64,000 nucleotides of DNA, taken from positions 61,824 through 125,823 of the forward strand of contig JBAYJB010000001.1 in the NCBI GenBank assembly GCA_041665325.1, read 5' to 3'. Below are positions 8,001-49,314 of the stretch, in pieces. The stretch comes from Minisyncoccota bacterium (GTDB lineage: Bacteria; Patescibacteriota; Minisyncoccia; Phycocordibacterales; PALSA-1337). The translations under genes were made by a program, and so were the position numbers. The notes beneath the pieces are model-generated. The model was given only the letters and a program-made list of their open reading frames with translations. It was not told the DNA's origin and searched no databases. Numbering within the stretch: position 1 is the stretch's first letter; each line of letters begins with the position of its first letter.

Positions 8001-8067
8001 CGTACTACTAGACCATACTTTTCATGTTTTGACTTAGAAATTTTTGAGCACCGGAGACATGCCACCT
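8001..8067 (+). repeat. Conserved intergenic motif, copy A (GACCATACTTTTCATGTTTTGACTTAGAAATTTTTGAGCACCGGAGACATGCCACC)
   Basis: Near-identical blocks occur at 9104..9160 and 49241..49314, with a partial copy at 17824..17850. Confidence 0.6.
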
Positions 8068-8158
8068 ACGCAAAAAATCAATAATAATCAAATCACCCCC
8101 CACCCCTTATTTGATTTATTCATTGAAACAGTCACGGTTCTTTGCTATGCTCGACTCA

Positions 8159-8790
8159 TGATCATCACCTATCTCGGCGGAGAATTCGTCAAAGTGCAGT
8201 TTGGGGACACCATCCTAGCCTTCAACCCAGTTTCCAAGGACTCGAAACTGCCGACCGCTAAGTTCGGGGCCGATATCGTGCTCTCCAGTCTCAACCATCC
8301 TGATATGAATGGCGTGGACCAAGTCTCATTCGGGGACAAGAAGGCCTTCGCGGTCACGGGCCCCGGCGAGTTCGAGATCAAGGGCGTCTTCATCAAGGGT
8401 CTGGCCTCCGAGTCTGGCTACGACGGCGAAAAGAGGATCAACACCATCTTCACGGTCGCCCTCGAGGGCATGAATATCTGCTATCTCGGCGCGGTCAACC
8501 AAGCAGAATTGCCGACGGAGGCCGATGAAGCCATCGACGGAGTCGACATCCTGTTCGTCCCGATCGGCGGCGATGGTGTGCTCGATCCGGCCAAGGCCTA
8601 CAAGCTCGCTGTCTCCATCGGTCCCAAGATCATCATTCCCATCCACTACGGAGATATGGGTGCCAAGGACTCTCTCAAGGTATTCCTCAAGGAGGCTGGG
8701 GAGAACCCCAAGCCCGAGGCCAAGTTGACCATCAGGAAGAAGGACCTGGAAGGGAAGGATGCCGATGTGGTGGTGCTCGAGAAGGAGTAG
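8159..8790 (+). CDS. MBL-fold metal-dependent hydrolase (UPF0173-like)
   Basis: MIITYLGGEFVKVQFGDTILAFNP.. N-terminus is typical of this family. The ORF-track start at 8044 lies inside the conserved motif and is rejected. Confidence 0.65.
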
Positions 8791-8802
8791 TATAATACCC
8801 GT

Positions 8803-9099
8803 ATGGCTATCGAAGCATATCTAGACAACCTCCGCACCAAGCCAGAGCATGTCCGCCGCCGTTTCGCTTTCTGGTGGGCGCTGGCTCTGACCGCGCTCAT
8901 CGCGATCTTCTGGTTCGGTTCGATCACCGGTTTCAGTTTGAGCAAGAATGCGGCCGTCGCCTCGGCTACCCAAAAGATCTCTTCTCCCAGTGCCGCTCTG
9001 GTAGCGGGGATCGGCTCGCTCGGCAAGGATGTCTGGGAGCTGGTCTTCGGACCGAAGAAGGTGGTCTATTCCGAAGTGGAGGTTCTGCCGGGGAAGTAA
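8803..9099 (+). CDS. Small hypothetical membrane protein
   Basis: 98 aa with one strong TM (FAFWWALALTALIAIFWFGSI). Confidence 0.35.
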   Translation: MAIEAYLDNLRTKPEHVRRRFAFWWALALTALIAIFWFGSITGFSLSKNAAVASATQKISSPSAALVAGIGSLGKDVWELVFGPKKVVYSEVEVLPGK

Positions 9100-9103
9100 C
9101 GAT

Positions 9104-9160
9104 ACCGTCTACATTACTGGACCATACTTTTGTGGTTTTGACTTAGAAATTTTGTGGAGA
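9104..9160 (+). repeat. Conserved intergenic motif, copy B
   Basis: CTGGACCATACTTTTGTGGTTTTGACTTAGAAATTTTGTGGAG. Confidence 0.6.
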
Positions 9161-9237
9161 AAATAGAACTCTGCCGACAACCCTTTATTTGAAAAGTATT
9201 TTAATAAAGCTTTCTCTCAAAACTCGCTAAAACCCCA

Positions 9238-9266
9238 TTGCAAAACACGCCATTTTTTGCTATAAT
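9238..9266 (+). promoter_or_regulatory. Consensus-like sigma70 promoter TTGCAA-N17-TATAAT for gyrA
   Basis: The -10 ends 10 nt before the gyrA ATG at 9277 and there is no SD, which implies a near-leaderless mRNA. Confidence 0.55.
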
Positions 9267-9276
9267 TGTCTGACGA

Positions 9277-11742: not shown

Positions 11743-11785
11743 TTTTCCTCATAAAATTGTCCCCATGTTGGGCTCAACAGCCATA

Positions 11786-11800
11786 TATTCATGGTAAAAT
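11786..11800 (+). promoter_or_regulatory. Extended -10 promoter TGgTAAAAT, 6 nt upstream of the ATG (leaderless arrangement)
   Basis: TGGTAAAAT at 11792..11800; the methyltransferase ATG is at 11807. Confidence 0.35.
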
Positions 11801-11806
11801 CTACCT

Positions 11807-12325: not shown

Positions 12326-12338
12326 AAAAATAACTGAC

Positions 12339-17756: not shown

Positions 17757-17823
17757 AACCTACCTTTTTCCGGATTGCTCCGGAGTTGCGGACCGCCCTC
17801 GAAGAGGGAAGCCCATTGTTTGT

Positions 17824-17850
17824 TGTTTTGACTTAAATTATGTCAATGAG
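17824..17850 (+). repeat. Partial copy of the conserved intergenic motif (TGTTTTGACTTAAATTATGTCAA)
   Basis: Shares GTTTTGACTTA with motif copies A to C. It also forms TTGAC-N9-GTCAA. Confidence 0.3.
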
Positions 17851-22703: not shown

Positions 22704-23405
22704 ATGACTACCATCAACTTCGAATCACTAGCTGAACATATCGGCGTGTCGATGGGCGACATCTCGCTCTTGCGTACGGCCTGCACGCACCGCTCGTACT
22801 TGAATGAGAATCGAGCCGCCGGGCTCGAGCACAATGAGCGCCTGGAATTCCTGGGCGATGCCGTCCTCGAGCTGGTGGTGACTAGCTATCTTTTCCGGAA
22901 ATACCCGACCAAGGCCGAAGGGACGCTGACGGCCTATCGTTCGGTTCTGGTCAACACAGTCAGTCTCATCAAGGTGGCCGAACGCATCGGCTTGAGAGAC
23001 TTCATCCTGCTCTCCAAGGGCGAATCCAAGGACAGCGGACGCGGCCGATCCGTGATCATCGCTAACGCGGTCGAGGCCATCATCGGCGCCATCTATCTCG
23101 ACCAGGGCTACAACGGTGCGGCCAACTTCATCGCCAATCACATCCTCGAGGTCATCGATATCGACAAGATCGTCGAGAGCAAATCATGGATCGATGCCAA
23201 GAGCCGCTTCCAGGAGGCGGCGCAGGACAAGGCCGGTCTGACACCGACCTACAAGACCATGAAGGAGGACGGGCCCGACCATGACAAGCATTTCACTCTG
23301 GGTGTGTTCCTCGGTAGCGTGCAAGTCGCTTCCGGCAGCGGACCGTCCAAGCAGGAGGCCGAGCAGAAGGCGGCCGAGAAGGCGCTTGAGGTCAAGGGGT
23401 GGTGA
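22704..23405 (+). CDS. rnc: Ribonuclease III
   Basis: ERLEFLGDAVLELVVTSYLF signature and a C-terminal dsRBD. Confidence 0.9.
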   Translation: MTTINFESLAEHIGVSMGDISLLRTACTHRSYLNENRAAGLEHNERLEFLGDAVLELVVTSYLFRKYPTKAEGTLTAYRSVLVNTVSLIKVAERIGLRDFILLSKGESKDSGRGRSVIIANAVEAIIGAIYLDQGYNGAANFIANHILEVIDIDKIVESKSWIDAKSRFQEAAQDKAGLTPTYKTMKEDGPDHDKHFTLGVFLGSVQVASGSGPSKQEAEQKAAEKALEVKGW

Positions 23406-23468
23406 TGTTGGGGTATTTTTGCGCTACAATTACCTGTACATCCCGAATACTGACTGCATACCTTTCTC

Positions 23469-25741: not shown

Positions 25742-25854
25742 GGAGCAATGTGACATGACAATCTCGAGACACGGATATTTTCCTGCTGGAAAATTCCTCG
25801 TGCTCGCGCCAGTCGCGCTCGCAAGTTCTCGAGATTGTCATGTCACATTGCTCC
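25742..25854. repeat. Variable-stem/conserved-core palindromic element, copy 2 (28-bp perfect arms + 57-bp core)
   Basis: The arms GGAGCAATGTGACATGACAATCTCGAGA and TCTCGAGATTGTCATGTCACATTGCTCC are perfect reverse complements. The core is identical to copy 1. Confidence 0.85.
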
Positions 25855-30784: not shown

Positions 30785-30940
30785 ATGTCACAAGACCAAC
30801 TGATCCAAATCAAGAATAAAGAGACCGGTGAGACCTACTGGACCCGCAAGAACCGCAAGAAGGTCGAGCGCAAGATCGAACTCAAGAAATACTCGGCCAA
30901 GCTCCGTAAGCACGTGGTCTTCAAGGAGGCTAAGAAATAA
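30785..30940 (+). CDS. rpmG: 50S ribosomal protein L33
   Basis: TGETYWTRKNRKKVERKIELKKYSAKLRKHVVFKEAKK matches L33 (..Y.T.KN......KLELKK.....R.HV.FKE.K). Confidence 0.8.
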   Translation: MSQDQLIQIKNKETGETYWTRKNRKKVERKIELKKYSAKLRKHVVFKEAKK

Positions 30941-31051
30941 GCACCGAGAGAACATGACCTCGAACTGCACGGATATTTCCCTGCTGGGAAATTCCTCGTG
31001 CTCGCGCCAGTCGCGCTCGCAAGGCAGTTCGAAATCATGCTCTCTCGGTGC
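30941..31051. repeat. Variable-stem/conserved-core palindromic element, copy 3 (27-bp arms + 57-bp core)
   Basis: The arms GCACCGAGAGAACATGACCTCGAACTG and CAGTTCGAAATCATGCTCTCTCGGTGC pair with three transition mismatches. The core hairpin carries compensatory changes (ATTTCCC-TGCT-GGGAAAT versus ATTTTCC-TGCT-GGAAAAT in copies 1 and 2). Confidence 0.8.
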
Positions 31052-31072
31052 TATACTAGCGACGGCACGTAC

Positions 31073-32064: not shown

Positions 32065-32634
32065 ATGAGCATGTCATCCTACAAGGACAAGATCTTCGGT
32101 TTCTATCAGGACCATCGGCGCATGCCGAGCTATGCGGAGATCATGAAGCTCGTCGGTTTCAAGTCCAAGAATGCCGTCTATAAGCTGGTCGGCAAGCTCC
32201 TCGATGAGGGGGCGGTCCTCAAGGACGCGACTGGACGCCTCATCCCGACCAACCTCTTTGGCGAGATCCCACTCCTCGGGCTCGTCGAGGCCGGTTTCCC
32301 GACGGCGGCCGATGAAGTCAATCTCGACACCATGACACTCGACAGCTATCTCGTCGAGCGCAAGGAGCAGACCTACCTCCTCAAGGTCAAGGGCGACTCG
32401 ATGATCGACGCCGGCATCCAGGAGGGCGACTTAGTGTTGGCCGAGCGCGGCCGCGAACCTCGAGTGGGCGACATCGTGATCGCCGAGGTGGACGGGGGCT
32501 GGACCATGAAGTATTACCGCAAGAAGGGCAGTCAGGTCTACCTCGAGCCGGCCAACAAGGCCTACAAGAATATATACCCGGAGCAGGATCTCAACATTGC
32601 GGCAGTGGTCAAGGGGGTGGTCAGGAAGTATTGA
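32065..32634 (+). CDS. lexA: LexA repressor (S24 peptidase with N-terminal wHTH)
   Basis: HTH (YAEIMKLVGFKSKNAVYKLV), cleavage-site region (VEAGFPTAAD) and Ser/Lys dyad region (KVKGDSMIDAGIQEGDLVL ... W.MKYY.K). Confidence 0.8.
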   Translation: MSMSSYKDKIFGFYQDHRRMPSYAEIMKLVGFKSKNAVYKLVGKLLDEGAVLKDATGRLIPTNLFGEIPLLGLVEAGFPTAADEVNLDTMTLDSYLVERKEQTYLLKVKGDSMIDAGIQEGDLVLAERGREPRVGDIVIAEVDGGWTMKYYRKKGSQVYLEPANKAYKNIYPEQDLNIAAVVKGVVRKY

Positions 32635-33306: not shown

Positions 33307-34647
33307 ATGCCAACCAACGGCATCTCAACAGCCTCAAGCAAGCTCATCCGTGGCAGCACCTGGTCGATCATCAAGATCGAAGGGGCGGCCACAAATCAAA
33401 ATCGTGTGGAAGGCAAGGTCACCCTGTATAACTCCTCCGACCGGTCAAGTGATGTGAACGCCTGGACCGCTGTCAGGCACGGCACTGATCAGTGGGCCAT
33501 CACAGGCCAAGGCGCGCGCATGTCTACCGGCGAGCGAGTGCGCTCGCCATTCACATATCCGTTCGTTCTTATGAAGTCTGTCAATGACGATGTGAGGGCG
33601 GAACTGTCGCACTGGATACGCATCAACGGTAAGGCTCTCTTCAAACAAGGGTCCGAGTTGTATGACAGGAGGGTGCATGCATCCTCATCGGGCAATGGCA
33701 GGCTTCCTTCAAACGGAGATCTGCCGCTTACGGACACGTTGTCCAGTCAGCAGGCGACCGCCGCTGTCAATGCAACCGGGAGACTCGAAGTCATCGAAGT
33801 GCTAGTCTCGGAGATCCAGCCGTTCGAGGGTCAACCCCGTGAAGAATTCACCAAATCCGACTTGAGAGAGATCAGGGAGAGCCTGAGGCAGGAGGGCCAA
33901 CAGCAGATCATCTTCGTCACTCCGGTCAGCGGTGTGAGGGGGAAGAGATGGGAGCTTGTCGACGGCGAGCGCCGTTACCGCGGCGCCGTGGCGGCCGGTA
34001 TCCGGACCCTGACCGCCGTGGTCAAGCGCTTCAAGAACAAGGATGAGCAATTCTGGAGCTCATTCACCATGAATTGGAATCGGCGTGATCATACCCCGTA
34101 TGAGAATATCCGAGCTGTCGAACGGGCTATGAAGTCCGGCAAGACGGTTGCCCAGATTCGCACCGCCACCGGCCGTTCGGACTGCTGGGTCTATCAGAAC
34201 CTGCAGTTGCAAAATCTGGATCGCTCACTGCGCGCGCTTATGAAGCAGTCAGTCCCCAAAAGCGACCGCATGTCGTTCGGCATCGCCAACAGGCTTTCGC
34301 GGGTGCCGAGGGCCGAGGACCAGCTGCGTATCTGGAATGTGGCCAAGCAACAGCTCACTCCCAGCCTGCGCAAGCTCAAGGTGGATCAGCTGACTGCGGT
34401 CATCCTGGACAAACTGCCTCAGAAGGGCCGTAAGCGCAAACCTAGCGATAACGGGGTGCGAATCCTGCGTTGCCTACAGACGGCCGAAGCCGACCAGACC
34501 TTCATCAGTCGGACCACGGAAGAGGACCTGCGGGCATTCATGATGAATACCACCATGGACTTCAACCGCAGCGATCTTCTTCCTCGCGTCAGGGCGGTTG
34601 CCGCCGCCTGGGTGGAGCTCGCCAAGCGGGTCAGAAAGCTCAAGTGA
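33307..34647 (+). CDS. ParB/Srx-fold nuclease-like protein with HTH and N-terminal extra domain (not the partition ParB)
   Basis: ParB N-domain motifs (IEVLVSEIQPFEGQPR.. GVRGKRWELVDGERRYRGAVAAG) and an HTH (KTVAQIRTATGRSDCWVYQNLQL). Confidence 0.6.
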   Translation: MPTNGISTASSKLIRGSTWSIIKIEGAATNQNRVEGKVTLYNSSDRSSDVNAWTAVRHGTDQWAITGQGARMSTGERVRSPFTYPFVLMKSVNDDVRAELSHWIRINGKALFKQGSELYDRRVHASSSGNGRLPSNGDLPLTDTLSSQQATAAVNATGRLEVIEVLVSEIQPFEGQPREEFTKSDLREIRESLRQEGQQQIIFVTPVSGVRGKRWELVDGERRYRGAVAAGIRTLTAVVKRFKNKDEQFWSSFTMNWNRRDHTPYENIRAVERAMKSGKTVAQIRTATGRSDCWVYQNLQLQNLDRSLRALMKQSVPKSDRMSFGIANRLSRVPRAEDQLRIWNVAKQQLTPSLRKLKVDQLTAVILDKLPQKGRKRKPSDNGVRILRCLQTAEADQTFISRTTEEDLRAFMMNTTMDFNRSDLLPRVRAVAAAWVELAKRVRKLK

Positions 34648-35911: not shown

Positions 35912-36517
35912 ATGAAAAATGACCTCAAGTTCAAGAAGACTACGCGTATCAGCTGGAACAGCTGGAACGACGGCACACCCGATAGAGATGCCTTTCCTGT
36001 GCCTCTGACATTGTCAAAAATACCGTTAGCGGCACGTGGATCATTCCTCGGTTTTGATATTCGCTCGTCTGTCTATCTCCACGGAGCGACCGTAGAGGCA
36101 ATCAGCGGAAAGCTTGGCAAGATCAATATAGTGATCGCTGCCCATCACAATGACAGGCCGCTTGGTGCCGGTGATCTTGTCAGTATTGCAAAGGGTTTGG
36201 CTACGCTCAACTCCGATATCTTGGAGTACCGAGGATTTCCTCTGAATAACCAAGGACCGTTCTTATTCGACTTGCGGGTTCCGAACGGCGCCGGATTCTG
36301 CGAGACTGCGGTCGAGCATGTCTCCAAAATCGTCACATTCCTTGGTGTCACAGGTGATCGTTGGTTCAGACATGCCATCAAGATTAAGCAATCGACGCTC
36401 GTTCTCGTGAAAGGGAACTGGATCGAATACGAGGATTATCTCGTCGGGAAGTTCCCGATCCGTCTGCCTAACTGCGCCGGAGAGCCCATCTTGCGTGAAG
36501 GCGGCATCGAAGCTTGA
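35912..36517 (+). CDS. Hypothetical protein (201 aa); C-terminus ..PILREGGIEA shared with gene 34806..35525
   Basis: No recognisable family. The 3' end and terminator form repeat module T2b (36486..36567). Confidence 0.45.
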   Translation: MKNDLKFKKTTRISWNSWNDGTPDRDAFPVPLTLSKIPLAARGSFLGFDIRSSVYLHGATVEAISGKLGKINIVIAAHHNDRPLGAGDLVSIAKGLATLNSDILEYRGFPLNNQGPFLFDLRVPNGAGFCETAVEHVSKIVTFLGVTGDRWFRHAIKIKQSTLVLVKGNWIEYEDYLVGKFPIRLPNCAGEPILREGGIEA

Positions 36518-36536
36518 AGTGTGATTTGGATCGTTC

Positions 36537-36567
36537 AGGGGCGCTCTCACGGGCGCCTCTTTTTTGT
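36537..36567 (+). terminator. Intrinsic terminator, module T2 copy b
   Basis: GGGGCGCTCTCACGGGCGCC + T6. Confidence 0.6.
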
Positions 36568-36585
36568 TTGTGCTAGGATTCTTGC

Positions 36586-36909
36586 ATGCCACTCATCAAT
36601 CTAGAATATGACAAGGAGATAGTTTCAGACGGGGATATTAGGATTCTATCTCAAGCTGTTCGTGACATTGTTTCAGAAACTACGGGCATAGAAGACGTCT
36701 TTGTCTATGCCAATGCTTCACAGATACGTATCAGAGTCGCTCCAGTAGAGATATTTGTCAGGATGACAGCCAAGAAGATCAAGAATGAAGACGAACTTAT
36801 AGGTACTATTAAATCTAAACTTAAGGAATGGAAACAAGGCTCCCGTTTTAAGCACCCGATAAATTTGACTCTAATACCCATGAATTGGAAGGTTGAGATA
36901 GGGATATAA
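36586..36909 (+). CDS. Hypothetical protein, possibly tautomerase-superfamily-like (starts Met-Pro); AT-rich gene
   Basis: MPLINLEYDKEIVSDGDIRILSQAVRDIV.. The Pro1 and length resemble 4-OT-like proteins, but the assignment is weak. Confidence 0.3.
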   Translation: MPLINLEYDKEIVSDGDIRILSQAVRDIVSETTGIEDVFVYANASQIRIRVAPVEIFVRMTAKKIKNEDELIGTIKSKLKEWKQGSRFKHPINLTLIPMNWKVEIGI

Positions 36910-36914
36910 CCAAC

Positions 36915-37499
36915 ATGTCCCTCACCCTCATCTTCGAAGCCCATGGCACGACATCTGATAACGAAGCCCACCTATCGTCGGGCTGGTATGATGTGGCCCT
37001 ATCTCCCAAGGGCGAACAGCAGTCGCGGGAGATGGGCGAGCGTTACAGGGACGACCATTTCGACGCCATATTCTGCTCGGACTTACAGCGGGCCTGGAGA
37101 AGCGCAGAGATTGCATTTTGTAAGAATAAAGTTGGAAAGCTTGTTACAGACAATGATTTTCTTAAGGCGGAATGTAAGTTTCCAATAATAACCGATGCGC
37201 GCCTGCGTGAATGCAATTATGGCGACCTGACGCAGAAACCGAGCGAGCTCGTGGACGCGGAGAAGACGAAGCGGATCAGCGTGCCATTCCCGAACGGCGA
37301 GAGCTACGAGGAGACCAATGCTCGGATGAAGTCGTTCCTAGAAGACCTGAAGAGGGACTATGACGGCAAGAGGGTCATGGTCATCGGCCACCGCGCGACG
37401 CAGTACGGCATCGAGGCGTATGTCAATGGTATGACCGTCGAAGAATGTCTGGCCAAACCATTCAAATGGGAGCCGGGGTGGGTTTACAAAATCAAATAG
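36915..37499 (+). CDS. Histidine phosphatase superfamily (phosphoglycerate mutase-like) protein; its 3' end forms att-like repeat copy 0
   Basis: LIFEAHGTTSDNEAHL (degenerate RHG motif) and VMVIGHRATQYGIE (second His motif). Confidence 0.55.
   Translation: MSLTLIFEAHGTTSDNEAHLSSGWYDVALSPKGEQQSREMGERYRDDHFDAIFCSDLQRAWRSAEIAFCKNKVGKLVTDNDFLKAECKFPIITDARLRECNYGDLTQKPSELVDAEKTKRISVPFPNGESYEETNARMKSFLEDLKRDYDGKRVMVIGHRATQYGIEAYVNGMTVEECLAKPFKWEPGWVYKIK
37458..37499 (+). repeat. att-like repeat R3, copy 0 (3' end of phosphatase gene: CCATTCAAATGGGAGCCGGGGTGGGTTTACAAAATCAAATAG)
   Basis: Related copies are at 38206..38249 and 38971..39028. Confidence 0.55.
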
Positions 37500-37513
37500 G
37501 GTAAACTATCGGT

Positions 37514-38068
37514 GTGAATCCCGAAAAGAAACAGTTACAGAATATTGCTTTTGTTGATGGCCAGAATCTCCATCTTGGTACAAGGGGGAACTCTTGGGCC
37601 ATTGATCACATAAAGTTCAGAACATACCTCAAAGAGAAATATAAGATTGACGAGGCCTATTATTTCCTCGGTTTTATATCTACAGGTGAACAGGATCTTT
37701 ACGATAGGCTTCAAAAAGCTGGATTTATACTTAGTTTTCGTGAGCACCCAGCAAATCTGAAGGGTAGTAAGAAGGGAAATGTTGATTCAGATATCATTTT
37801 TAGCCTTATGAAGAAGCTAGTTGAGAATGAGCCGTTTGATAAAGCCTTCATCATATCGGGTGATGGGGATTATAAAAAATTAGTCGATTTTCTCATAAAA
37901 AGAGTTAAATTTGGGAAAATGCTTTTTCCAAACAATGGTAATGCATCATCACTTTATAAAGCGTTAGGTGGTGAATACTTCGATTTTCTTGATTCTCCGG
38001 ATGTGAGGGCAAAGATTGAATATACCCATGTATCGCGTAGTGCTCCCATAATGAAAAAGGCCCCTTAG
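37514..38068 (+). CDS. NYN-domain (LabA/DUF88, PIN-like) protein; GTG start; AT-rich
   Basis: IAFVDGQNLHLGTRG.. and FIISGDGDYKKLVDFL are the NYN signature. Confidence 0.65.
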   Translation: MNPEKKQLQNIAFVDGQNLHLGTRGNSWAIDHIKFRTYLKEKYKIDEAYYFLGFISTGEQDLYDRLQKAGFILSFREHPANLKGSKKGNVDSDIIFSLMKKLVENEPFDKAFIISGDGDYKKLVDFLIKRVKFGKMLFPNNGNASSLYKALGGEYFDFLDSPDVRAKIEYTHVSRSAPIMKKAP

Positions 38069-38205
38069 GTATTGCACCGTTCGGGTCCTTCTTCGTAGTT
38101 ATACATGACGAATATACCCGTTTTATATTACAAAGTCAAGTTTTGTGGGTGTGGATTATTTCGCTATTTAAAGGCTAGAATATGTAGGTATCCACACTAG
38201 GCCGA

Positions 38206-38249
38206 GATTTCAAATGGCAGCTGTGGTGGAAGTATGAGGTGAGGTAACG
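38206..38249 (+). repeat. att-like repeat R3, copy 1 (GATTTCAAATGGCAGCTGTGGTGGAAGTATGAGGTGAGGTAACG)
   Basis: Shares TTCAAATGGCAGC.G.GGTGG..TATGA..TGAGGTAA with copy 2 and TTCAAATGG.AGCCGGGGTGGGT with copy 0. Confidence 0.55.
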
Positions 38250-38334
38250 TCCTTGCATTTTGGTCTAATCTGTGGTTTCATCATTCATGAACTTAGCTGA
38301 AGAATTTAACCAATGGAAAAGGAGATATAGCTCT

Positions 38335-38919
38335 ATGAAAATGTCAGATTTCGCGGCTGTAACAGCCGTAGACCCACACGAGGAAACTGCGTTAGCTTAC
38401 CAGTATCCCCTTCCTCTAATCAGGACGAACTTCGTCAAACGTTTCCTCCTGAAGCGTGGTATACCTGCCAACGAGTATTATCACATGGATGTGTTCGACT
38501 GTGCTCGCAGCCCGCAATCACATGTAGGTCCATTCGTGAACGCGATCGATTTCTTGGTGCCTGACGGCACGATCGTGCTTGCGGCGCGTGATGGAGCGAT
38601 CATCGACATCAAAGAGGATTCTTCCGAATGGGGGGACAATCCCCGGTTCCGCGATAAGCTCAACTACGTGACTGTTGATCACGGAAATGGCGAGTTCTCG
38701 CAGTACTGCCACCTACGCAAAGGATCGGTCGCGGCTCTCGGTCTCAGTCTCAATCGGCTTGTCTCGGCCGGCCAGCAGATCGCCGTGGTTGGCAAAACCG
38801 GCTGGACCGATCGAGATCACCTGCACTTCATCGTCTTCAAGAAGGTTGAGGGCGGCGATGGCTTCAAGAGTCTGAAGATTCAATTCATCGGTAGTACCGA
38901 TTTTGACCCAAGCGTCTAA
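38335..38919 (+). CDS. M23 family (LytM-like) metallopeptidase
   Basis: HxxxD (HMDVFD), VTVDHGNGEFSQYCHL, GKTGWTDRDHLHF. The start at 38335 has an AAGGAG RBS 10 nt upstream. The longer ORF from 38272 overlaps repeat copy 1. Confidence 0.7.
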   Translation: MKMSDFAAVTAVDPHEETALAYQYPLPLIRTNFVKRFLLKRGIPANEYYHMDVFDCARSPQSHVGPFVNAIDFLVPDGTIVLAARDGAIIDIKEDSSEWGDNPRFRDKLNYVTVDHGNGEFSQYCHLRKGSVAALGLSLNRLVSAGQQIAVVGKTGWTDRDHLHFIVFKKVEGGDGFKSLKIQFIGSTDFDPSV

Positions 38920-38970
38920 GGGTCGATCCAACCACTCTCCCGGGTGACTGTAATGGTCATCCGGTTTTTT

Positions 38971-39028
38971 ATTCAAATGCATTTCAAATGGCAGCCGGGG
39001 TGGGTGTATGAATTGAGGTAATAAAACC
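38971..39028 (+). repeat. att-like repeat R3, copy 2 (ATTCAAATGCATTTCAAATGGCAGCCGGGGTGGGTGTATGAATTGAGGTAATAAAACC)
   Basis: Includes an internal partial duplication, ATTCAAATG. Confidence 0.55.
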
Positions 39029-39090
39029 TAAAACTCGGTTCGTTTGATTTAAATAAAAGTTATCGTTATACGTTTCTCAAATATCCTTAT

Positions 39091-39118
39091 TTGACATAAG
39101 AAGTATGAGGAATATAAT
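39091..39118 (+). promoter_or_regulatory. Consensus sigma70 promoter TTGACA-N16-TATAAT driving the AT-rich three-gene operon
   Basis: Both hexamers are perfect. The ATG at 39150 is about 25 nt downstream of the predicted TSS. Confidence 0.6.
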
Positions 39119-39149
39119 ATAACAATAACTATAAATATACTCTAACAAC

Positions 39150-39536
39150 ATGGCGTTAAAAGACCTAATACAAAATACAAATTCAACAGAGAAGGATTTA
39201 GAAAATATTCTAAAGAGTAGAGTAAAACTGCTCAAGATCAATGACCTTTACTCTGTCCACATAGAAAGGTCATTTTCTAAGACATTGGATCAAAAAAACA
39301 AAATTCTTTTCTATTTGGCAGGCAAACTAGCTTGGCAAATCTTAGAGAAGAATCAGATTTGGGTAAAACCAAAGGAGTTAGAATCTGAGCTTGGTATTAG
39401 TGGGGGTACAATAAGACCAAGTCTCCTTGCTTTCAAAAAGCATAAGTTTGTTGAGTATAACAAGAAAGATAAAGGCTATCGATTAACAGGAGTTGGTTTG
39501 TCTGAGCTTATAAAGTTCCAAGAGGAGCTTGAGTAA
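39150..39536 (+). CDS. Hypothetical winged-helix (wHTH) protein, gene 1 of the AT-rich operon
   Basis: 128 aa. PKELESELGISGGTIRPSLLAFKKHKFVEYNKKDKGYRLTGVGLSEL resembles MarR/ArsR-type wHTH. About 33% GC. Confidence 0.45.
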   Translation: MALKDLIQNTNSTEKDLENILKSRVKLLKINDLYSVHIERSFSKTLDQKNKILFYLAGKLAWQILEKNQIWVKPKELESELGISGGTIRPSLLAFKKHKFVEYNKKDKGYRLTGVGLSELIKFQEELE

Positions 39537-39541
39537 ATATC

Positions 39542-39970
39542 ATGGATAACGAAACGCTAAAAGAGATAAACAAAAAGCTTGATAAGATACTTTTTATTCT
39601 TGGTGGGCAAGTAAAAGAACCTATGAGAAGTAGGAGCCCCTCATCAGTAAAGTCACTACAAAAAGGTACTACTTTTGACGCGCACACCATTAACTTTAAT
39701 CAAAATAATCGGGCATTTTTCAAAAAATATATTGGAGACATGACCGGTCCAGAGAAGTATACTCTGACCTTGGCTTTTTGCGCAAAAGGGAAAATAGGTC
39801 TACCTGTAGAATCAGAAAAAATAAATAACCTCTGGAATAAACTGTTTGTAATTTTCGGAGGTAAGCTAACTTCACGTACTTATGCGACTAGGGCAAAAGA
39901 AAAGGGTTGGATCGACTCTAATAAGCATGGTGAATATTTTCTAAGAGATCAGTGGGCAGCGATATTCTAA
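39542..39970 (+). CDS. Hypothetical protein, gene 2; carries a domain paralogous to the N-terminus of gene 3
   Basis: MTGPEKYTLTLAFCAKGKIGLPVESEKINNLWNK...YATRAKEKGWID aligns with MTGEEKFLALGVIISQEKIDLDISASDVRSKWSK...YYRAESKGWVI of the next gene. Confidence 0.45.
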   Translation: MDNETLKEINKKLDKILFILGGQVKEPMRSRSPSSVKSLQKGTTFDAHTINFNQNNRAFFKKYIGDMTGPEKYTLTLAFCAKGKIGLPVESEKINNLWNKLFVIFGGKLTSRTYATRAKEKGWIDSNKHGEYFLRDQWAAIF

Positions 39971-39977
39971 GTAAACC

Positions 39978-40742
39978 ATGTTTGATTATAAACACAAAAG
40001 TTTATTAGCTTTATTAAGCGGACTACCCTTAGATTCAATGACTGGGGAAGAAAAGTTCCTTGCGTTAGGAGTGATAATTTCTCAGGAAAAGATTGATCTC
40101 GATATCTCTGCTTCAGATGTAAGGAGTAAGTGGTCTAAGGGTTTACTTGGGAAATATAATCCAGGTTATTACTACCGGGCCGAATCAAAAGGGTGGGTAA
40201 TTCCCGATGATGCAGAGCATAATAAGTTTATTGTTACCCCTGAGGGTTTTAAACATCTTAAAACCACCATAGGCCATGAAGAGAAAGACGAACTACTAAA
40301 TCCAAAAGAAGTAAGAAAGACAGGTAAACTTTTTATTTTCAACAAATCAAGCGCGTACAGCTTCGATAAGTTTATTAGGAATATTCTAAAAAATGCTAAA
40401 AGTAGGGTTTTAATAGCAGATTCATATGTAGATGAGACAATATTTGATAATCATCTTGAAACTTTACCCAACGACCTAATTATAAAAGTCCTCTTTATGA
40501 ATGACTCTGGCTCATTCGGCGCAAGAATGAAAAGATTCAAGGTTCAATTTAAGAAATCAGATTTCAAAAAGTATAAAGATTTACACGATAGATTTATTAT
40601 TGTAGATGATATTGCTTATATTATAGGGCCATCAATAAAAGATGCTGCGGCCAATAGCCCAGCAATTGTTGTGGGTCTTAATCAACAGGAAACTTTGCTC
40701 ATTAGTAATTTTTTTAGCGACATTTGGAAATTAGGCAAATAG
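39978..40742 (+). CDS. Hypothetical two-domain protein, gene 3: N-terminal domain shared with gene 2, plus a C-terminal PLD-like (HKD-variant HxR..D..GPS) putative nuclease domain
   Basis: The C-terminal ..KYKDLHDRFIIVDDIAYIIGPSIKD fits HxK-x4-D-x6-G(S)xN with K replaced by R, and there is a preceding RVLIADSYVD strand. This is an inference from motif spacing only. Confidence 0.4.
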   Translation: MFDYKHKSLLALLSGLPLDSMTGEEKFLALGVIISQEKIDLDISASDVRSKWSKGLLGKYNPGYYYRAESKGWVIPDDAEHNKFIVTPEGFKHLKTTIGHEEKDELLNPKEVRKTGKLFIFNKSSAYSFDKFIRNILKNAKSRVLIADSYVDETIFDNHLETLPNDLIIKVLFMNDSGSFGARMKRFKVQFKKSDFKKYKDLHDRFIIVDDIAYIIGPSIKDAAANSPAIVVGLNQQETLLISNFFSDIWKLGK

Positions 40743-44236: not shown

Positions 44237-44557
44237 ATGGCGTTCGTTTGCAATCGAAACTTCAACCCCATTCGTCTTATGTTGCTCGCTCCCGGTTCGC
44301 TCACACCTACTAATAGTATTGGTCACGGAGGAAGGGATCTCATGCTCCCACTCCCGGCGGCACCGAAATCAGCTCCTGATCCGGCTATCGCCCGCGATCG
44401 TATCATCGCGCTCAAGAATCGCGGCCAGCTCATCAAGGGCAGCCTGGATTTCTTCACGGTCAAGGACCACGCCGGCTTCATCGCGCAGTTCGAAAGTGCG
44501 CTGGCCAAGGCGCGTGCCGCCCTCAAGGAGATCGATCCGGATCACCTCATCCCGTGA
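44237..44557 (+). CDS. Hypothetical protein (106 aa), followed by terminator CGCCCGCACCA-CTTGTT-TGGTGCGGGC + T5
   Basis: ORF with a downstream intrinsic terminator at 44586..44615. Confidence 0.3.
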   Translation: MAFVCNRNFNPIRLMLLAPGSLTPTNSIGHGGRDLMLPLPAAPKSAPDPAIARDRIIALKNRGQLIKGSLDFFTVKDHAGFIAQFESALAKARAALKEIDPDHLIP

Positions 44558-44631
44558 TTCTTGATGGAGTTGCTGTCGTCACCTCGCCCGCACCACTTGT
44601 TTGGTGCGGGCTTTTTGTATGTGCACACAAA

Positions 44632-45141
44632 TCATTCCTTTTGCATGGAAATTTCTTTGATAAATTCCAAGCTATTTCTACAAACTCTAGTGACAAACTT
44701 TCTTTTTCCAGTTTTCTGAACGGAGCTCTGAGTCGTACTCCTGTACCCCAGGCTATCGATCATGATTTGCACATCCTGAGAAAGTCCGTGGATGATGGTG
44801 GTAAAATTTGCGTAAGTATATGATCTATCTTTATAAACCGACCCGTCAGTTTCAAATAAGCCTCGTAAGCAATTACGAACATATTCCTTTTTGCCAAATA
44901 CCCACGCAGGAACCCTGATGTTCTGTTCAAACTTTGAACCAGCAAGAGCCTTCCAACCCAGAATTGCTTCCAGCTCATTCGAATATACACATACATTGGA
45001 AAGATTGCCATTTCCAATAGCGAAACCTATGACATAGGCAGTGTTTGAACTACGGTGATCCATTGTGCCAGAGGCGGGACTTGCACCCGCAAGCCTTTCG
45101 GCGACCGATTTTGAGTCGATTGTGTTTGCTAATTTCACCAC
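44632..45141 (-). CDS. Free-standing LAGLIDADG-family homing-endonuclease-like protein (motif 1 degenerate, motif 2 intact); GTG start
   Basis: YVIGFAIGNGNLS (acidic residues replaced) and NCLRGLFETDGSVYKD (canonical). The motifs are only about 56 aa apart, so the N-terminal half looks truncated or degenerate. Confidence 0.55.
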   Translation of the reverse strand: MVKLANTIDSKSVAERLAGASPASGTMDHRSSNTAYVIGFAIGNGNLSNVCVYSNELEAILGWKALAGSKFEQNIRVPAWVFGKKEYVRNCLRGLFETDGSVYKDRSYTYANFTTIIHGLSQDVQIMIDSLGYRSTTQSSVQKTGKRKFVTRVCRNSLEFIKEISMQKE

Positions 45142-45186
45142 TCTGGCCTAGGCACAGTCTACAATAACTTATGTTAAAATACACGC

Positions 45187-46200
45187 ATGTCCGCCGCATA
45201 TGAGAACAACGCTGTCTTCTGGGTCGAGGTCGGCAAGATCGCCCCGAACCCATATCAGCCCAGGCAGGAATTCGACCAGGCCAAGCTCCGCGACCTCGCC
45301 GAGTCCATCCGCATGTACGGCGTCCTCCAGCCGCTCATCGTCACGCGCAAGGAAGTCTATCGCGAGGATGGCGGCATGGGCGTCGAGTATGAGCTCATCT
45401 CCGGCGAGCGCCGCCTGCGCGCCGCTAAGCTGGCTAGCCTTGTCCAAGTACCGGTACTCATCCGGAATGGTGAGGAGAGCGCTCGCGTCAAGCTAGAGAT
45501 CGCCATCATCGAGAATCTCCAGCGTGAGGACCTCAACCCGGTAGATCGGGCGCGCTCCTTTGACCGCTTGGCCAACGAATTCAAGCTCAAGCAGTCCGAG
45601 ATCGCCATCAAGGTAGGCAAGAGCCGTGAATACGTCTCGAACTCTCTGCGCATCCTCGCTCTGCCGCCCGAGATGGTCATGGCTCTAGAGGAGGGTAAGA
45701 TCTCCGAAGGGCATACCCGCCCACTCCTCATGTTGACCGATCGCAAGGCCGAGCAGGAAGTGCTCTTCCGGGAGATCATCCTGAAGAAGCTCACCGTCCG
45801 CGAGGCCGAGTCATTGTCGCGCCGCGTGGCCGTCGATCGCATCCGCAACAAGGCCAAGTACCTCGACCCGGTTATCATCGAGATGGAGAAATCATTTACC
45901 GAATCCCTCGGCACCCGCGTGCGCATCGAAAAGAACAAGGAGGGTGGCACGGTCACCATCGATTTCTTCTCGCCAGACGATCTGCGGGCCATCTTAGAAA
46001 AAATGCATCCGATGATGCCTGTCGTCTCCGCAGGCGGGAGCAGTGCTCCGCGAGGAGGAGGCGTAGCCGAGGATCGAGCGGATGTACTGCTGCCGCCGAG
46101 AGGAGACGGTGATGCTGCGCCGGTAGATGACCGCGCTCCTTCTGACGCCACCAAGGAAGACAACCAGGACCTCTACTCGCTCAAAGATTTCTCCATATAA
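45187..46200 (+). CDS. parB: Chromosome partitioning protein ParB
   Basis: IAPNPYQPRQEF..LAESIRMYGVLQPLIV..ELISGERRLRAAKLA plus HTH and C-terminal dimerisation region. No parA adjacent. Confidence 0.85.
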   Translation: MSAAYENNAVFWVEVGKIAPNPYQPRQEFDQAKLRDLAESIRMYGVLQPLIVTRKEVYREDGGMGVEYELISGERRLRAAKLASLVQVPVLIRNGEESARVKLEIAIIENLQREDLNPVDRARSFDRLANEFKLKQSEIAIKVGKSREYVSNSLRILALPPEMVMALEEGKISEGHTRPLLMLTDRKAEQEVLFREIILKKLTVREAESLSRRVAVDRIRNKAKYLDPVIIEMEKSFTESLGTRVRIEKNKEGGTVTIDFFSPDDLRAILEKMHPMMPVVSAGGSSAPRGGGVAEDRADVLLPPRGDGDAAPVDDRAPSDATKEDNQDLYSLKDFSI

Positions 46201-46245
46201 AAAAGCCGCGCTGTGCGAGCGCGGCGGGGATACTGGAGGGCTTGT

Positions 46246-46731
46246 TTAGCAAGCGGTGGCTGAAGCTCTTTGCAGGGCAAAAAGGTCGCTGATCATCGTC
46301 TCGACGAGTGCCGCTCGCACTTGGTTTGAACTAAGCGGCTTATGCAAGGTGCACGAACCGAGCTCGCGGAGTTCCCGAGCATTGTAGTTCATGAATGATG
46401 CCGCCATGAAGATCACCTTGGCCGGGTGCCTGCGCCTCTGAAGAGAGCGGGCCATGTCGATCCCTTCACGGCCACCACCCAAGCCGATGAGGATAATATC
46501 CGGATGATAGCTCGTATTCATCAGAGCGAAGGCATCACTGACATTGACCACAGTTTGGATCTCTTGCACACATCTCTGCGGTTCCACATTCCTCTGACCG
46601 TCTTGTTCTGCGCCGTCTTGCTTCTCGACATCAGTCGGTTTGATCAAAAGCTTCAAGAGAAGCTCGCGGGTGGCGGGCTCGCCGTCGACTACCAACAATT
46701 TCAATGCTTTGAGCAGGTCGTTTGCAGGCAT
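46246..46731 (-). CDS. Stand-alone response-regulator receiver (CheY-like) domain protein with an insertion
   Basis: LKLLVVDGEPATREL...PDIILIGLGGG..KVIFMAAS is the receiver-domain pattern. Confidence 0.5.
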   Translation of the reverse strand: MPANDLLKALKLLVVDGEPATRELLLKLLIKPTDVEKQDGAEQDGQRNVEPQRCVQEIQTVVNVSDAFALMNTSYHPDIILIGLGGGREGIDMARSLQRRRHPAKVIFMAASFMNYNARELRELGSCTLHKPLSSNQVRAALVETMISDLFALQRASATAC

Positions 46732-46819
46732 GCTAACTTCCTCCGGGGTTATGGGTTGAGATTATTGAGAACAAAAAACATACTACCGAATAGAATAGTC
46801 GCACCTTTGGGTTTGCAAA

Positions 46820-49081
46820 TCAAGCGGCCTTTTTCTTGAAACCGCGAGTTTTCTTGGGGACGGCGAGCATCTCGAGCGCGCGGGCCATAGTGATAGTGTA
46901 GACATCGTCGGGCACCTTGATCGAACGGAAATCAGTGCCGGCGACTACATATGGGCCAAAGCGGCCGATCGAGGCAGTCACACCGTTGCCAGTCTTCGGG
47001 TCAGTGCCAAGGAGGCGCGGCACACTCAAGTACTTGAGTGCCTCGGCGACGGTCACCGTCGATGGGTCTGTGCCACGCGGGATCGAAGCCATCTTTGGTT
47101 TGACGACAGCCGATTCCGCAGAGGGTACTGGTGTGGTTAAATCCTTTGCCTTCTTTACCTTTTTAACTTTCTTCACCTTCGGCGGCTTCACACCCAGTTG
47201 GACATACGGTCCAAATCGGCCATTCAAGACGAATATCGGCAGACCGGTCGTCGGATCGTTGCCGATCGGCTCGTCCTTCTTGAATTCGTGACCATCGAGC
47301 GTCAGCGCGCCGTCACATTCCGGATACTTAGTGCATGACAGGAATTTGCCGTTGCGTCCGAGCTTGATCTCAAGGGGAGTCGAGCCACACTTGGGACACT
47401 TCCACTTCGGGTCGGCGGCGCCGAGGTTGGTGGCCTTGGCCAGCTTGTCCTTGGACAGGACTTCCTTGTGGAAAGGTCCATAGAACTCCGACAGAGTCTT
47501 GAGGTATGTGCGCGAGCCCTCGGCGATCTCGTCGAGCTTATTCTCCATGTCGGCCGTGAATGAGTCGCTGATATAAGTAGGGAAATATTCCTCGAGGAAT
47601 GAAGAGACGACGTCGCCGGTGTCAGTCGGTCGGAGTGAGCGGTTCTCCTTGGTGACATAGCCGCGATCCTCGATGGTCTTACAGATCGAAGCGTATGTCG
47701 AAGGGCGTCCGATACCGCGCTTCTCGAGCTCCTTGATAAGCCCTGCCTCGGTATATCGGCCCGGTGGCTGAGTCTGCTTCTCCTGTGCATCGATGGAGTC
47801 GAGCTTGAGTGCCTCGCCCTTGGCGCATTTTGGTAGAGTAACTTCCTCGCCGTTGGATTCCGGGTCGGCCTTGAGCCAGCCGGCCGCCAGGACGCGCGAG
47901 CCGGTGGCTTCGAATGCCGGCAGGGAGTCGTCATTGATATTGGCGATGATCTTGCTCCTGGCCATGACGGCGTCGATCATCTGCGAAGCCACAGTGCGCT
48001 GCCAGATCAGACGGTAGAGCTTCTTTTGTTCCTCGGTATGACCGGCATTGTCCTTGTTGAAATGGGTCGGGCGGATGGCTTCGTGCGCTTCCTGGGCATT
48101 CTTGCTTTTGGTAGCGTATTTGCGGAATTGGATATGTCCCTTGCCGTATTTCTTCTCAACGACCGGACCGATCTGGTCAAGGGCCTGCTGGGAGAGGTTG
48201 GTCGAATCGGTGCGCATATAGGTGATATAACCGGCCTCGTAGAGCTTCTGTGCCAGCGACATCGTCCATGAAGGGGCAAAGCCGAGCCGGGTGCTGGCTG
48301 TCTGCTGAAGTGTGGAAGTGATGAAGGGAGCTTTGGGCTGGCGCTTCTGCTCGGACTCCTCGACGTCTACTATATGCCAATCGTTGGCGCGGGCTTTGTC
48401 GAGGATGGCGTCTACCTCCTTCTTGTCGCGCGGTTCTTTGGAGCAAGTGAGGGCGAGCGGGACGCTCGCGGCGGTCTGCCACATACCGGCGATGACCCAG
48501 TAAGTCTCGGGCTGGAAGGCGCGGATCTCCCGTTCGCGTTCCATGATGATGCGCAAGGCGGGGGACTGGACGCGCCCGGCCGAGAGGCCGTAACGGACCT
48601 TCTTCCAGATCAGACCGGAGAGATCGTAACCGACCAAGCGGTCGAGGACGCGGCGGGCCTCCTGGGCCTCGACGAGCTTTTCGTCCACAGCTCGCGGATG
48701 CCCCATGGCTTCGTGCACGGCCTTCTCGGTGATCTCGTGGAAGGCCACGCGCTCGATCTTCTTCTTGACGCTGGCGCCGAGGCGGTCCTTGAGGACTTCG
48801 GAGATATGCCAAGCGATGGCTTCGCCCTCGCGGTCCGGGTCGGTCGCCAGGATGATCTCGTCGGCTCCGGCGGCTTCTTTGGCGATGTCGGCAATGATCA
48901 GCTCTTTCTTGGCCACGACCTCATAGTGTGGCACGAACCCTGCTTCGATATCGATGGCTTTCTTGGCGGACTTGGGGAGGTCGCGGATATGGCCGACCGA
49001 GGCACGTACGACGAAACCGTCTCCGAGATATTTGGAGATGGTCTTGGATTTCGACGGCGACTCGACGATGACCAGTTTCAT
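46820..49081 (-). CDS. topA: DNA topoisomerase I
   Basis: TOPRIM N-terminus (MKLVIVESPSKSKTISKYLG), active-site Tyr region, Zn-ribbon CPKCGS, Lys-rich C-terminus. Confidence 0.9.
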   Translation of the reverse strand: MKLVIVESPSKSKTISKYLGDGFVVRASVGHIRDLPKSAKKAIDIEAGFVPHYEVVAKKELIIADIAKEAAGADEIILATDPDREGEAIAWHISEVLKDRLGASVKKKIERVAFHEITEKAVHEAMGHPRAVDEKLVEAQEARRVLDRLVGYDLSGLIWKKVRYGLSAGRVQSPALRIIMEREREIRAFQPETYWVIAGMWQTAASVPLALTCSKEPRDKKEVDAILDKARANDWHIVDVEESEQKRQPKAPFITSTLQQTASTRLGFAPSWTMSLAQKLYEAGYITYMRTDSTNLSQQALDQIGPVVEKKYGKGHIQFRKYATKSKNAQEAHEAIRPTHFNKDNAGHTEEQKKLYRLIWQRTVASQMIDAVMARSKIIANINDDSLPAFEATGSRVLAAGWLKADPESNGEEVTLPKCAKGEALKLDSIDAQEKQTQPPGRYTEAGLIKELEKRGIGRPSTYASICKTIEDRGYVTKENRSLRPTDTGDVVSSFLEEYFPTYISDSFTADMENKLDEIAEGSRTYLKTLSEFYGPFHKEVLSKDKLAKATNLGAADPKWKCPKCGSTPLEIKLGRNGKFLSCTKYPECDGALTLDGHEFKKDEPIGNDPTTGLPIFVLNGRFGPYVQLGVKPPKVKKVKKVKKAKDLTTPVPSAESAVVKPKMASIPRGTDPSTVTVAEALKYLSVPRLLGTDPKTGNGVTASIGRFGPYVVAGTDFRSIKVPDDVYTITMARALEMLAVPKKTRGFKKKAA

Positions 49082-49240
49082 TGCGGCTAAGTATTACACG
49101 ATAAGCGGCGAAAGTGCAAAAAACTGTCAAGAATTGGTGCCGGTTTTTTGGCCGGTCGGCGGGGAAGAGTATCTCCCCGGCTCAAAAAACTGAAGGCCAT
49201 TTTTGTGTCGTATAATATTTCCTCGTTTCAAACGACCCTT

Positions 49241-49314
49241 ACGTAGTCTATGTTATCAGACCATATTTTTCGGGTTTTGACTTAGAAATTTTTGAGGCCC
49301 GGAGACATACCTCA
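49241..49314 (+). repeat. Conserved intergenic motif, copy C (CAGACCATATTTTTCGGGTTTTGACTTAGAAATTTTTGAGGCCCGGAGACATACCTC) in the dprA-topA intergenic region
   Basis: Same orientation as copies A and B, although here it is antisense to the flanking genes. Confidence 0.55.

Follow-up and report, generated by a model that had tools for sequence, protein, structure and literature searches.

A lineage-specific dispersed intergenic repeat with a conserved bipartite core in a Candidatus Paceibacterota genome

The 64,000-nt stretch of contig JBAYJB010000001.1 analysed here in full (the window) comes from a lineage of Candidatus Paceibacterota, which belongs to the Parcubacteria within the Candidate Phyla Radiation (CPR), and it harbours a family of short intergenic repeats. 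Four copies (A, B, C and E) lie in the window, and others were found on conspecific contigs and in two JGI metagenomes, so that nine distinct loci are known in one species-level lineage (A, B, C, E/F, I, A′, G and H). Their shared core is a bipartite sequence of 44 nt, TWAYYAGACCATRYTTTT-N3-GTTTTGACTTAGAAATTTTTGA, and at four sites the syntenic spacers of relatives are shorter and lack the element. We tentatively favour the reading that the family is a lineage-specific, non-autonomous dispersed non-coding element whose bipartite core is kept by constraint at the sequence level, probably as a protein recognition site on DNA.

A GyrA identical to that of the window is encoded on ENA metagenome contigs (ERZ27249449), and the gene content of the window, with tandem type IV secretion system (T4SS) pilin genes and many small housekeeping operons, is Parcubacteria/CPR-like. 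In total, ~170 kb of the lineage was examined. The relatives used for comparison were L015–L018 and L023–L025, whose GyrA is 88–89% identical, and L056, whose SecA is 77% identical. A 19-mer scan of the JGI metagenomes returned 29 loci; about 20 are AT-rich chance matches, and nine are true homologues with core-like flanks. Among the latter is the secA locus L051, which is 98.5% identical to L055 from the same ENA sample as contig L014. It follows that these loci represent further regions of one and the same species-level lineage.

Outside this lineage, the family was not found. The invariant 19-mer gave merely 12 scattered single matches among the GTDB species representatives, in unrelated taxa and at chance level, and profile models detected no copy in ~115 kb of the relatives' loci (L015–L018, L023–L025 and L056). 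An earlier interpretation made from the letters alone (the sequence-only reading) had held that hundreds of occurrences would mark a generic low-complexity repeat; nine loci were found. As to the conservation it looked for, the repeat is present in conspecific strains and absent from the relatives examined. A phage or plasmid origin was considered and rejected: there are no meaningful blastn matches in phages or plasmids, and the sole IMG/VR match to the 19-mer has unrelated flanks. A literature search found no description of interspersed repeats of this kind in Patescibacteria.

The three copies noticed earlier (A, B and C) are real and beyond chance. The 34-nt sequence GACCATAYTTTTNNNGTTTTGACTTAGAAATTTT recurs exactly at 8011–8044, 9120–9153 and 49259–49292, always on the plus strand, with no match in 100 dinucleotide-preserving shuffles. 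The unit size of about 65 bp assigned to them was too small, as the extents in Table 1 show. A supposed truncated fourth copy at 17824–17850 has just GTTTTGACTTA in common with the family, and larger models do not retrieve it. The true fourth copy, E, lies on the minus strand and had been overlooked. Its nhmmer E value (~2685–2826) went from 1.4e-6 with the three-copy profile to 2.5e-29 with a four-sequence model, and it is 78% identical to copy C across 113 nt.

Copy A is flanked by the S1 (−) and MBL-fold (+) genes, B by ORF98 (+) and gyrA (+), and E by the rpsU-like/ybeY/ftsA/ftsZ genes (−) and a NUDIX gene (+). Copy C lies between topA (46820–49081, −) and dprA (49374–50342, −) and is, as described before, antisense to both neighbours. 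The open reading frame (ORF) start at 8044 within copy A was rightly suspected to be an artefact: the MBL-fold gene is called at 8158–8790, and its product is 210 aa long in every relative. The position ascribed to copy B also held, its core ending 85 bp before the gyrA promoter TTGCAA-17-TATAAT (9238–9266).

Homology among the copies is always in register and, counted from the C of CTTAGAAATTTT, extends from −119 to +28, with unrelated flanks outside. The elements overall measure ~110–205 nt, and a full element ~135–205 nt. Their conservation is uneven. Within the core, TG.CTTAGAAATTTT is present in all nine copies and GTTTT.A. in eight, copy E being the sole deviant, while the 3-nt block occurs as eight different triplets. 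The 13 nt upstream are ~55–80% conserved.

To the left of the core, two unrelated modules of similar length are found. The A-type module (A, A′ and, with a 17-nt deletion, H) begins with CGGCGKCTATYAC and includes a perfect 9-bp hairpin, GAAGTGACC/GGTCACTTC, after which comes GGAGGAGCAAGAAGGG. Copy A is 87% identical to the secA-linked copy A′ (L051/L055) over 7913–8047 (135 nt), with unrelated flanks, so that the 5′ end of the A-type, CGGCGGCTATTAC, is fixed by two independent contexts. The C-type module (C, E and I) contains CTGAAGGCC..TGTCGYATAAT..CAAACGAGCCTT. The left part is truncated in copies B, F and G: in B the element begins immediately past the stop codon of the gene upstream, in G ~20 nt past such a codon. 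To the right of the core, the extension TGAGnnCCGGAGACATRCC is common to A, C and F (in F with a 9-nt deletion), and a second, A-rich extension of the GAGAAAA type is found in B, E, I, A′ and H. The family is a mosaic because all four combinations of left and right modules occur, and its modules were reshuffled among copies. In A, B, E, A′ and I, a 3′ module, CCYYTTATTTG, follows 40–85 nt past the core. Its YTTATTTG part occurs five times in the window, three times at this distance 3′ of a core on the same strand.

Table 1. Copies of the repeat family, their parts in the window, and loci assigned to copies elsewhere in the lineage
Feature	Positions	Strand	Context or evidence
Copy A, full-length A-type element	7913..8115	+	Divergent S1/MBL spacer
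Core of copy A	7997..8050	+	nhmmer core model E 1.1e-16; exact pattern match
A-type internal hairpin GAAGTGACC-GGAAAGT-GGTCACTTT	7943..7967	+	Present in A, A′, H; folded in the minimum free energy structures of A, A′
3′ module CCTTATTTGA of copy A	8105..8114	+	YTTATTTG scan
Copy B, 5′-truncated	9100..9208	+	Begins where the ORF98 stop codon ends; the ancestral gyrA promoter lies downstream
Core of copy B	9106..9159	+	nhmmer E 6.3e-14; exact pattern match
3′ module CTTTATTTGA of copy B	9183..9192	+	YTTATTTG scan
Copy C, long C-type element	49181..49313	+	dprA-topA spacer; nhmmer E 2.1e-23
Core of copy C	49245..49297	+	nhmmer E 1.9e-15
Copy E, C-type	2654..2826	−	Upstream of rpsU(S21)-ybeY-ftsA-ftsZ, divergent from NUDIX gene
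Core of copy E	2701..2754	−
3′ module CTTATTTG of copy E	2654..2661	−	Overlaps the −35 of the rpsU promoter
Partial copy of the sequence-only reading	17813..17850	+	Not a family member; nhmmer E 0.4 (three-copy profile), absent among later-model matches
L054 = copies A plus B			JGI 19-mer scan
L045 = copy F			Same copy in ENA contig L014 (strain with 99% identical GyrA)
L035 = copy I			JGI 19-mer scan
L051 = copy A′			Also in L055
L032, L052 = copy G			JGI 19-mer scan
L033, L053 = copy H			JGI 19-mer scan

Empty sites in the relatives document the gain of copies. The ORF98–gyrA spacer measures 69–94 bp in relatives with conserved synteny versus 177 bp in the window. When aligned with L015 and L018, copy B is an insertion of ~109 nt, on either side of which the 3′ end of ORF98 and the gyrA promoter are kept. 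The S1–MBL spacer is 202 bp long in L015 (GyrA 88% identical) and 378 bp in the window, and the size of the extra DNA fits the ~200 nt of the full A-type element. Between rpsU and hisS, L015 has a spacer of 44 bp, and different genes are found there in L023 and L014. Downstream of secA, L056 has a spacer of 27 bp and a different next gene. These comparisons point to the addition of copies after the split from the relatives examined (GyrA 88–89% identical at three spacers, SecA 77% at the fourth). A small dispersed repeat was one of the options listed in the sequence-only reading, and it is the one supported by the nine insertion loci of the single lineage, by syntenic sites that are empty in relatives and by the mosaic of modules.

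Presence and absence also differ between conspecific strains at two loci. Copy I occupies the rnc–smc spacer of L035, where the window has a 63-nt spacer without a copy. The segment comprising copy E and the NUDIX gene is swapped in L014, which carries the different copy F. At secA, the A-type element reaches into the gene and occupies its last codons (L055 3217–3250; L051 6674–6709, minus strand). The SecA tail that it supplies reads, up to the stop codon, RRLSLPSTSLK (also given as ...EEHRRLSLPSTSLK and ...KKCGALDTEEHRRLSLPSTSLK), while the SecA proteins of relatives end in ...EEHQRLMAGKK or ...CHGAGK. The secA stop codon falls in the 5′ arm of the A-type hairpin.

There are two strain-variable islets. 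In the rpsU–hisS islet (window 2659–3500, L014 1605–2766), the window has copy E and the NUDIX gene, and L014 has two small unknown ORFs and copy F. In the other (window 23404 onward, L035 1–3135), the rnc stop codon is followed in L035 by copy I and then by a gene without a blastn match to the smc of the window, the first ~50 nt of which align with the smc start. Both break points coincide with the right-hand edge of an element copy, and the islets lie in genomes that are otherwise 97.5–99.6% identical. A link between the repeat and NUDIX genes, which stand beside both E and A′, was rejected, as the two NUDIX proteins are just 29% identical. An integron attC site, or a cassette bounded by copies A and B, was likewise discarded: the MBL–ORF98 unit is conserved in relatives without the repeats.

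Under the favoured reading of a non-autonomous element with a protein-recognised core, the repeat would spread, or would have spread, by duplicative insertion or recombination of DNA. The two invariant blocks with their free 3-nt spacer would be kept by selection on the primary sequence, as the recognition site of a DNA-binding protein. This protein may belong to the apparatus by which the element is propagated, or it may come from the host and have co-opted the element. Invariant blocks next to a saturated 3-nt spacer and diverged modules argue for selection on the primary sequence rather than for recency alone. Because the core has no pairing potential, a site recognised by a protein on DNA is the simplest reading, and such a role is the best guess for the strong conservation of the core. 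The 5′ truncation, the asymmetric ends and the lack of target duplication resemble one-ended or retro-type mobilisation, which is a likeness of pattern only.

Several observations weigh against this reading. An all-versus-all blastn-short comparison of the nine copies with 300-nt flanks, on both strands, found no terminal inverted repeats and only direct homology in register. No target-site duplication was seen at the filled and empty sites of B and I or in the two A-type contexts, comparisons whose power is limited by the divergence of the empty sites. In the annotated neighbourhoods, no transposase, recombinase or reverse transcriptase stands beside any copy. The C-type and the truncated copies lack sharp ends. 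Since the two polymorphic loci lie at the borders of recombined, strain-variable segments, the elements may have travelled with imported DNA. Finally, the copies known come from ~170 kb of the lineage.

The repeats could instead act at the RNA level, as a multi-copy small RNA gene, an option also raised by the sequence-only reading, or as a cis-acting RNA whose AU-rich core serves as a single-stranded seed or protein-binding segment; we consider this unlikely. It would explain why the stable 5′ hairpin of the A-type is kept via one-sided changes (U-G for U-A) in A, A′ and H, and why two A-to-G changes in the left arm of copy E would keep G-U pairs with the UUUUUGAG end. The C-type copies have TATAAT or CATAAT ~70 nt upstream of the core, and five of the nine copies sit just 3′ of a co-oriented gene, so that they could be elements of a 3′ untranslated region. 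However, RNAalifold predicted no consensus pair over the nine copies, although a near-invariant core in nine sequences gives little power for covariation; the same result agrees with the earlier statement that the motif has no internal dyad symmetry. Folding gives C and E z-scores of −0.6 and −1.2, the complementary A/U runs at the ends of both being of low complexity, and a stable hairpin exists in the A-type left module only. Consensus scans detected no sigma-70-type promoter in the cores of A, B and E or in the dprA–topA spacer that holds C, whereas the neighbouring genes have a clear TTGnnn-17-TAnnnT. No hairpin with a U-run follows the core in the forward orientation. An Rfam scan of the window at the gathering threshold gave tRNAs only, and scans at E≤10 over A, B, E and C gave nothing on the elements. 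Nor is the orientation uniform, with five to six copies co-oriented with the downstream gene and three to four convergent, which also tells against a strand-specific action on neighbouring genes. A still less probable product, to which hardly any weight is given, is a small peptide, read forward as ..LLDHTFxVLT or in reverse as M..(L/I)KNF, each followed by a stop codon. Copies C and E do have ATG ORFs of 11 codons ending at the core TAG, and reverse-strand ATG ORFs of 5–25 codons end at the core TAA in A, C, F, A′ and I. But A, B, F, G and H lack a forward start, A′ has an in-frame TGA, and B, G and H lack a reverse start. The mini-ORFs are thus inconsistent among copies on both strands. Differences between C and E fall 11/7/8 at codon positions 1/2/3, without third-position bias, and the invariance of the core reaches all third positions.

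Two further explanations were weighed. The core may be a host chromosomal site and not a mobile element, bipartite and non-palindromic, bound by a protein of chromosome architecture, segregation, replication termination or global regulation and placed between genes to serve the cell, although the evidence makes this improbable. A conservation pattern of two invariant blocks around a free 3-nt spacer is typical of protein sites, and TWGACY occurs twice, 20 bp apart. A ParB is encoded 3 kb from copy C, in a window in which no canonical parS was detected, and the sign of the GC skew flips near 8.4 kb, copy E (−) lying to the left of that point and A, B and C (+) to the right. Yet relatives that keep these genes in conserved synteny lack the repeat, the copies bring along ~100 nt of subfamily-specific sequence that was duplicated with them, and the distances to neighbouring promoters are inconsistent (48–85 bp). 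ParB and helix-turn-helix proteins bind palindromes, of which the core has none. The Ter-like orientation concerns four sites (P ~0.25–0.5) in an incomplete genome whose skew is mixed past 17 kb. In a narrower version, the 44-nt core would be a polar site of chromosome architecture (a non-canonical centromere or loading site, or a fork trap) bound by a lineage-specific protein, with the modules hitch-hiking; we hold this to be a distant prospect. The earlier proposal of a binding array for a nucleoid or replication protein, tied to gyrA and topA, is not supported in that form. The association with these genes is coincidental, because other copies adjoin rpsU, secA/NUDIX, a peptidyl-prolyl isomerase gene, an extracytoplasmic function sigma factor gene and rnc. 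On the remaining explanation the copies, without a function of their own, would be leftovers of neutral segmental duplication (of the secA 3′ end with the spacer that follows it, for instance) and would be similar through recency or gene conversion. The stretch shared by A and A′ begins in the secA coding sequence (RRL...), four of its five differences leave the amino acid unchanged when read in the secA frame, the relic recurs in H with two codons deleted, and gene conversion would produce the mosaic. Against this, the secA codons of relatives differ there at six of nine bases, which makes it more likely that the shared stretch is element sequence, and the C-type copies combine a different left module with the same core. 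Uniform neutral decay cannot yield an invariant block of 14–19 nt beside a saturated 3-nt block and flanks that are 20–45% divergent. This explanation, too, is held to be unlikely. The comparison of two strains around copy H was not used as evidence of constraint; divergence is low there and, in a sliding window, equally low elsewhere.

The motif is not the promoter of the neighbouring genes, because those genes have clear sigma-70-type promoters of their own near the start codons. Besides that of gyrA, these are TTGAAA-17-TATGCT for the MBL-fold gene, TTTACA-17-TAGCAT for the NUDIX gene and TAGACA-17-TATAGT for S1. In the core itself, TTGACT has no −10 box at 16–18 nt and TAGAAA has no −35 box. 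Hairpins with T-runs in the reverse orientation (E, I and G) were rejected as terminators, being variable in sequence and partly those of neighbouring genes. Promoters of the clade share a T-tract and an extended −10 (TTTTTGCTATAAT / TTTTTGCGCTACAAT), as seen in the window at 9238–9266 and 23405–23468 and upstream of gyrA in L015, L018 and L025. As these promoters lie so close to the start codon, the mRNAs of the clade are probably leaderless or nearly so.

Known chromosomal sites were also searched for. The canonical parS, a 16-bp palindrome (TGTTNCACGTGAAACA), was found neither in the window (≤3 mismatches) nor in ~280 kb of loci of the species and its relatives (≤2 mismatches). The window nevertheless encodes two ParB-family proteins, one by parB (45187–46200) and one with a ParB_N domain (33307–34647). 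The best position weight matrix match to a dif/Xer site in 74 kb is ATGTCGCATAATATTTATGAATTTCAAA, in the left module of copy E. It was rejected: it scores 18.5 bits as against 32–41 for real dif sites, ~0.4 such matches are expected by chance, its XerD arm is poor, and neither C nor I has it. The window is enriched in DnaA-like boxes, yet a single near-match overlaps a copy (B, 9153–9161). A LexA/SOS box is not a candidate either, for the S24 peptidase gene (32065–32634) has no copy upstream. With regard to GC skew, it is positive in 18 consecutive 1-kb bins (~−9600 to ~8.4 kb, L020 plus the window) irrespective of gene strand, then negative for 9 kb and mixed thereafter. The change at ~8.4 kb, near the divergent S1/MBL spacer, may mark a replication terminus or origin, or else the boundary of an inversion; the search for a dif site turned up nothing convincing.

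Among known repeats, the family shares most traits with BOX elements of Streptococcus pneumoniae (boxA-boxB-boxC), when compared by description and not by sequence. BOX elements, too, are non-coding and intergenic, measure ~100–200 nt, combine their modules variously, have no associated transposase or clear target duplications, are confined to a single lineage and lie in either orientation to genes. They are described as forming stable secondary structures and as occurring more than 100 times per genome. In the present family, by contrast, a hairpin exists in the A-type left module only, the core is unstructured and nine loci are known. MITEs (miniature inverted-repeat transposable elements), such as Correia/NEMIS, RUP and the Rickettsia palindromic elements, are likewise small and non-autonomous, lie in spacers or occasionally at gene ends, and differ in presence between strains. 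Small size, lack of coding capacity, multiple copies and presence/absence differences between genomes are found here as well, and the in-frame insertion of Rickettsia palindromic elements resembles the replacement of the SecA tail. Unlike in MITEs, terminal inverted repeats and target duplications were not found, and the most conserved part is internal, near the 3′ side.

Repetitive extragenic palindromic sequences (REPs) are imperfect palindromes of 20–40 nt that are often bound by IHF or gyrase and are mobilised by REP-associated tyrosine transposases (RAYTs). Together with the bacterial interspersed mosaic elements (BIMEs), they resemble the family in being intergenic, multi-copy, mosaic and frequently placed just 3′ of genes. 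However, its core has no dyad symmetry, a REP-type palindrome is absent from the copies, and no RAYT-like gene was seen. One-ended elements (IS91/ISCR, IS200/IS605 derivatives and retroposed copies) share with it asymmetric ends, the lack of inverted repeats and target duplication, a common 3′ part and a variable or truncated 5′ side (B, F and G; H with an internal deletion). At the loci examined, though, there is no Rep/HUH protein, Y1 transposase or reverse transcriptase, and no subterminal hairpin at both ends. Two other structural ideas were rejected: abutted insertion sequence ends with a 3-bp junction spacer, as the two core blocks are not inverted repeats of each other, and a tRNA-like anticodon loop around the variable triplet, both flanks of which are T-rich and unable to pair. 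Since the defining features of MITEs and REPs were looked for and not found, the family is assigned only to the general kind of small interspersed intergenic repeats. It is an ordinary feature of a bacterial genome and not a new system.

The relatives carry lineage-specific insertions of their own, namely a 57-nt repeat with two hairpins in L023 (7–63 and 12741–12797), unrelated to this family, a 703-bp ORF98–gyrA spacer in L025 (1824–2526) and a 552-bp S1–MBL spacer in L018 (8354–8905). The same spacers thus give the impression of hot spots for insertion throughout the clade.

The window also contains a second, unrelated repeat family at 5420–5532, 25742–25854 and 30940–31052, always on the plus strand. 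Its conserved 57-nt centre, CACGGATATTTTCCTGCTGGAAAATTCCTCGTGCTCGCGCCAGTCGCGCTCGCAAGT, is 95–100% identical between copies and is flanked by a near-perfect inverted repeat of 28–29 nt whose sequence is wholly different in each copy. A conserved loop on a long variable stem is unusual. The predicted hairpins reach −65 to −70 kcal/mol, with z-scores of −9 to −12, and the inner hairpin shows a compensatory change (ATTTTCC/GGAAAAT to ATTTCCC/GGGAAAT). No Rfam family matches it, apart from microRNA-like chance matches. The first copy, too, is an insertion, since the S26–Pth spacer measures 66 bp in L015 and 193 bp in the window.

Other features of the window were noted in passing. A free-standing ORF resembling a LAGLIDADG_3 homing endonuclease (44632–45141, −; 169 aa; Pfam E 1.6e-10) lies beside parB and abuts and, as an ORF, overlaps an apparently intact tRNA-Leu(caa) gene (45065–45147, −). 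An island of low GC content (0.36–0.50 at ~36400–40400, ~0.55 elsewhere) holds three tandem related genes whose 3′ ends are repeated at 37459, 38207 and 38981 (family D6); the island may consist of foreign or of rapidly evolving DNA. Two pairs of terminator-like hairpins with T-runs, 33175–33203/34663–34691 (97% identical, family D14) and 35521–35564/36525–36568 (93% identical, family D9), have members 1.0–1.5 kb apart, which suggests duplicated units of gene plus terminator or recruited terminator repeats.

By itself, the finding opens no long-standing question. CPR genomes are very small and streamlined, and one does not expect interspersed repeats to be frequent there. An insertion of the present family gives SecA a new C-terminus, and another insertion displaces a promoter. 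The family can be used as a marker for strain typing and for breakpoints in metagenome assemblies, and the 44-nt bipartite core offers a probe for a DNA-binding or mobilising activity in an uncultured lineage. Together with the second hairpin family, the repeat indicates that the intergenic spacers of CPR bacteria gain and lose short elements at the level of species and strains.

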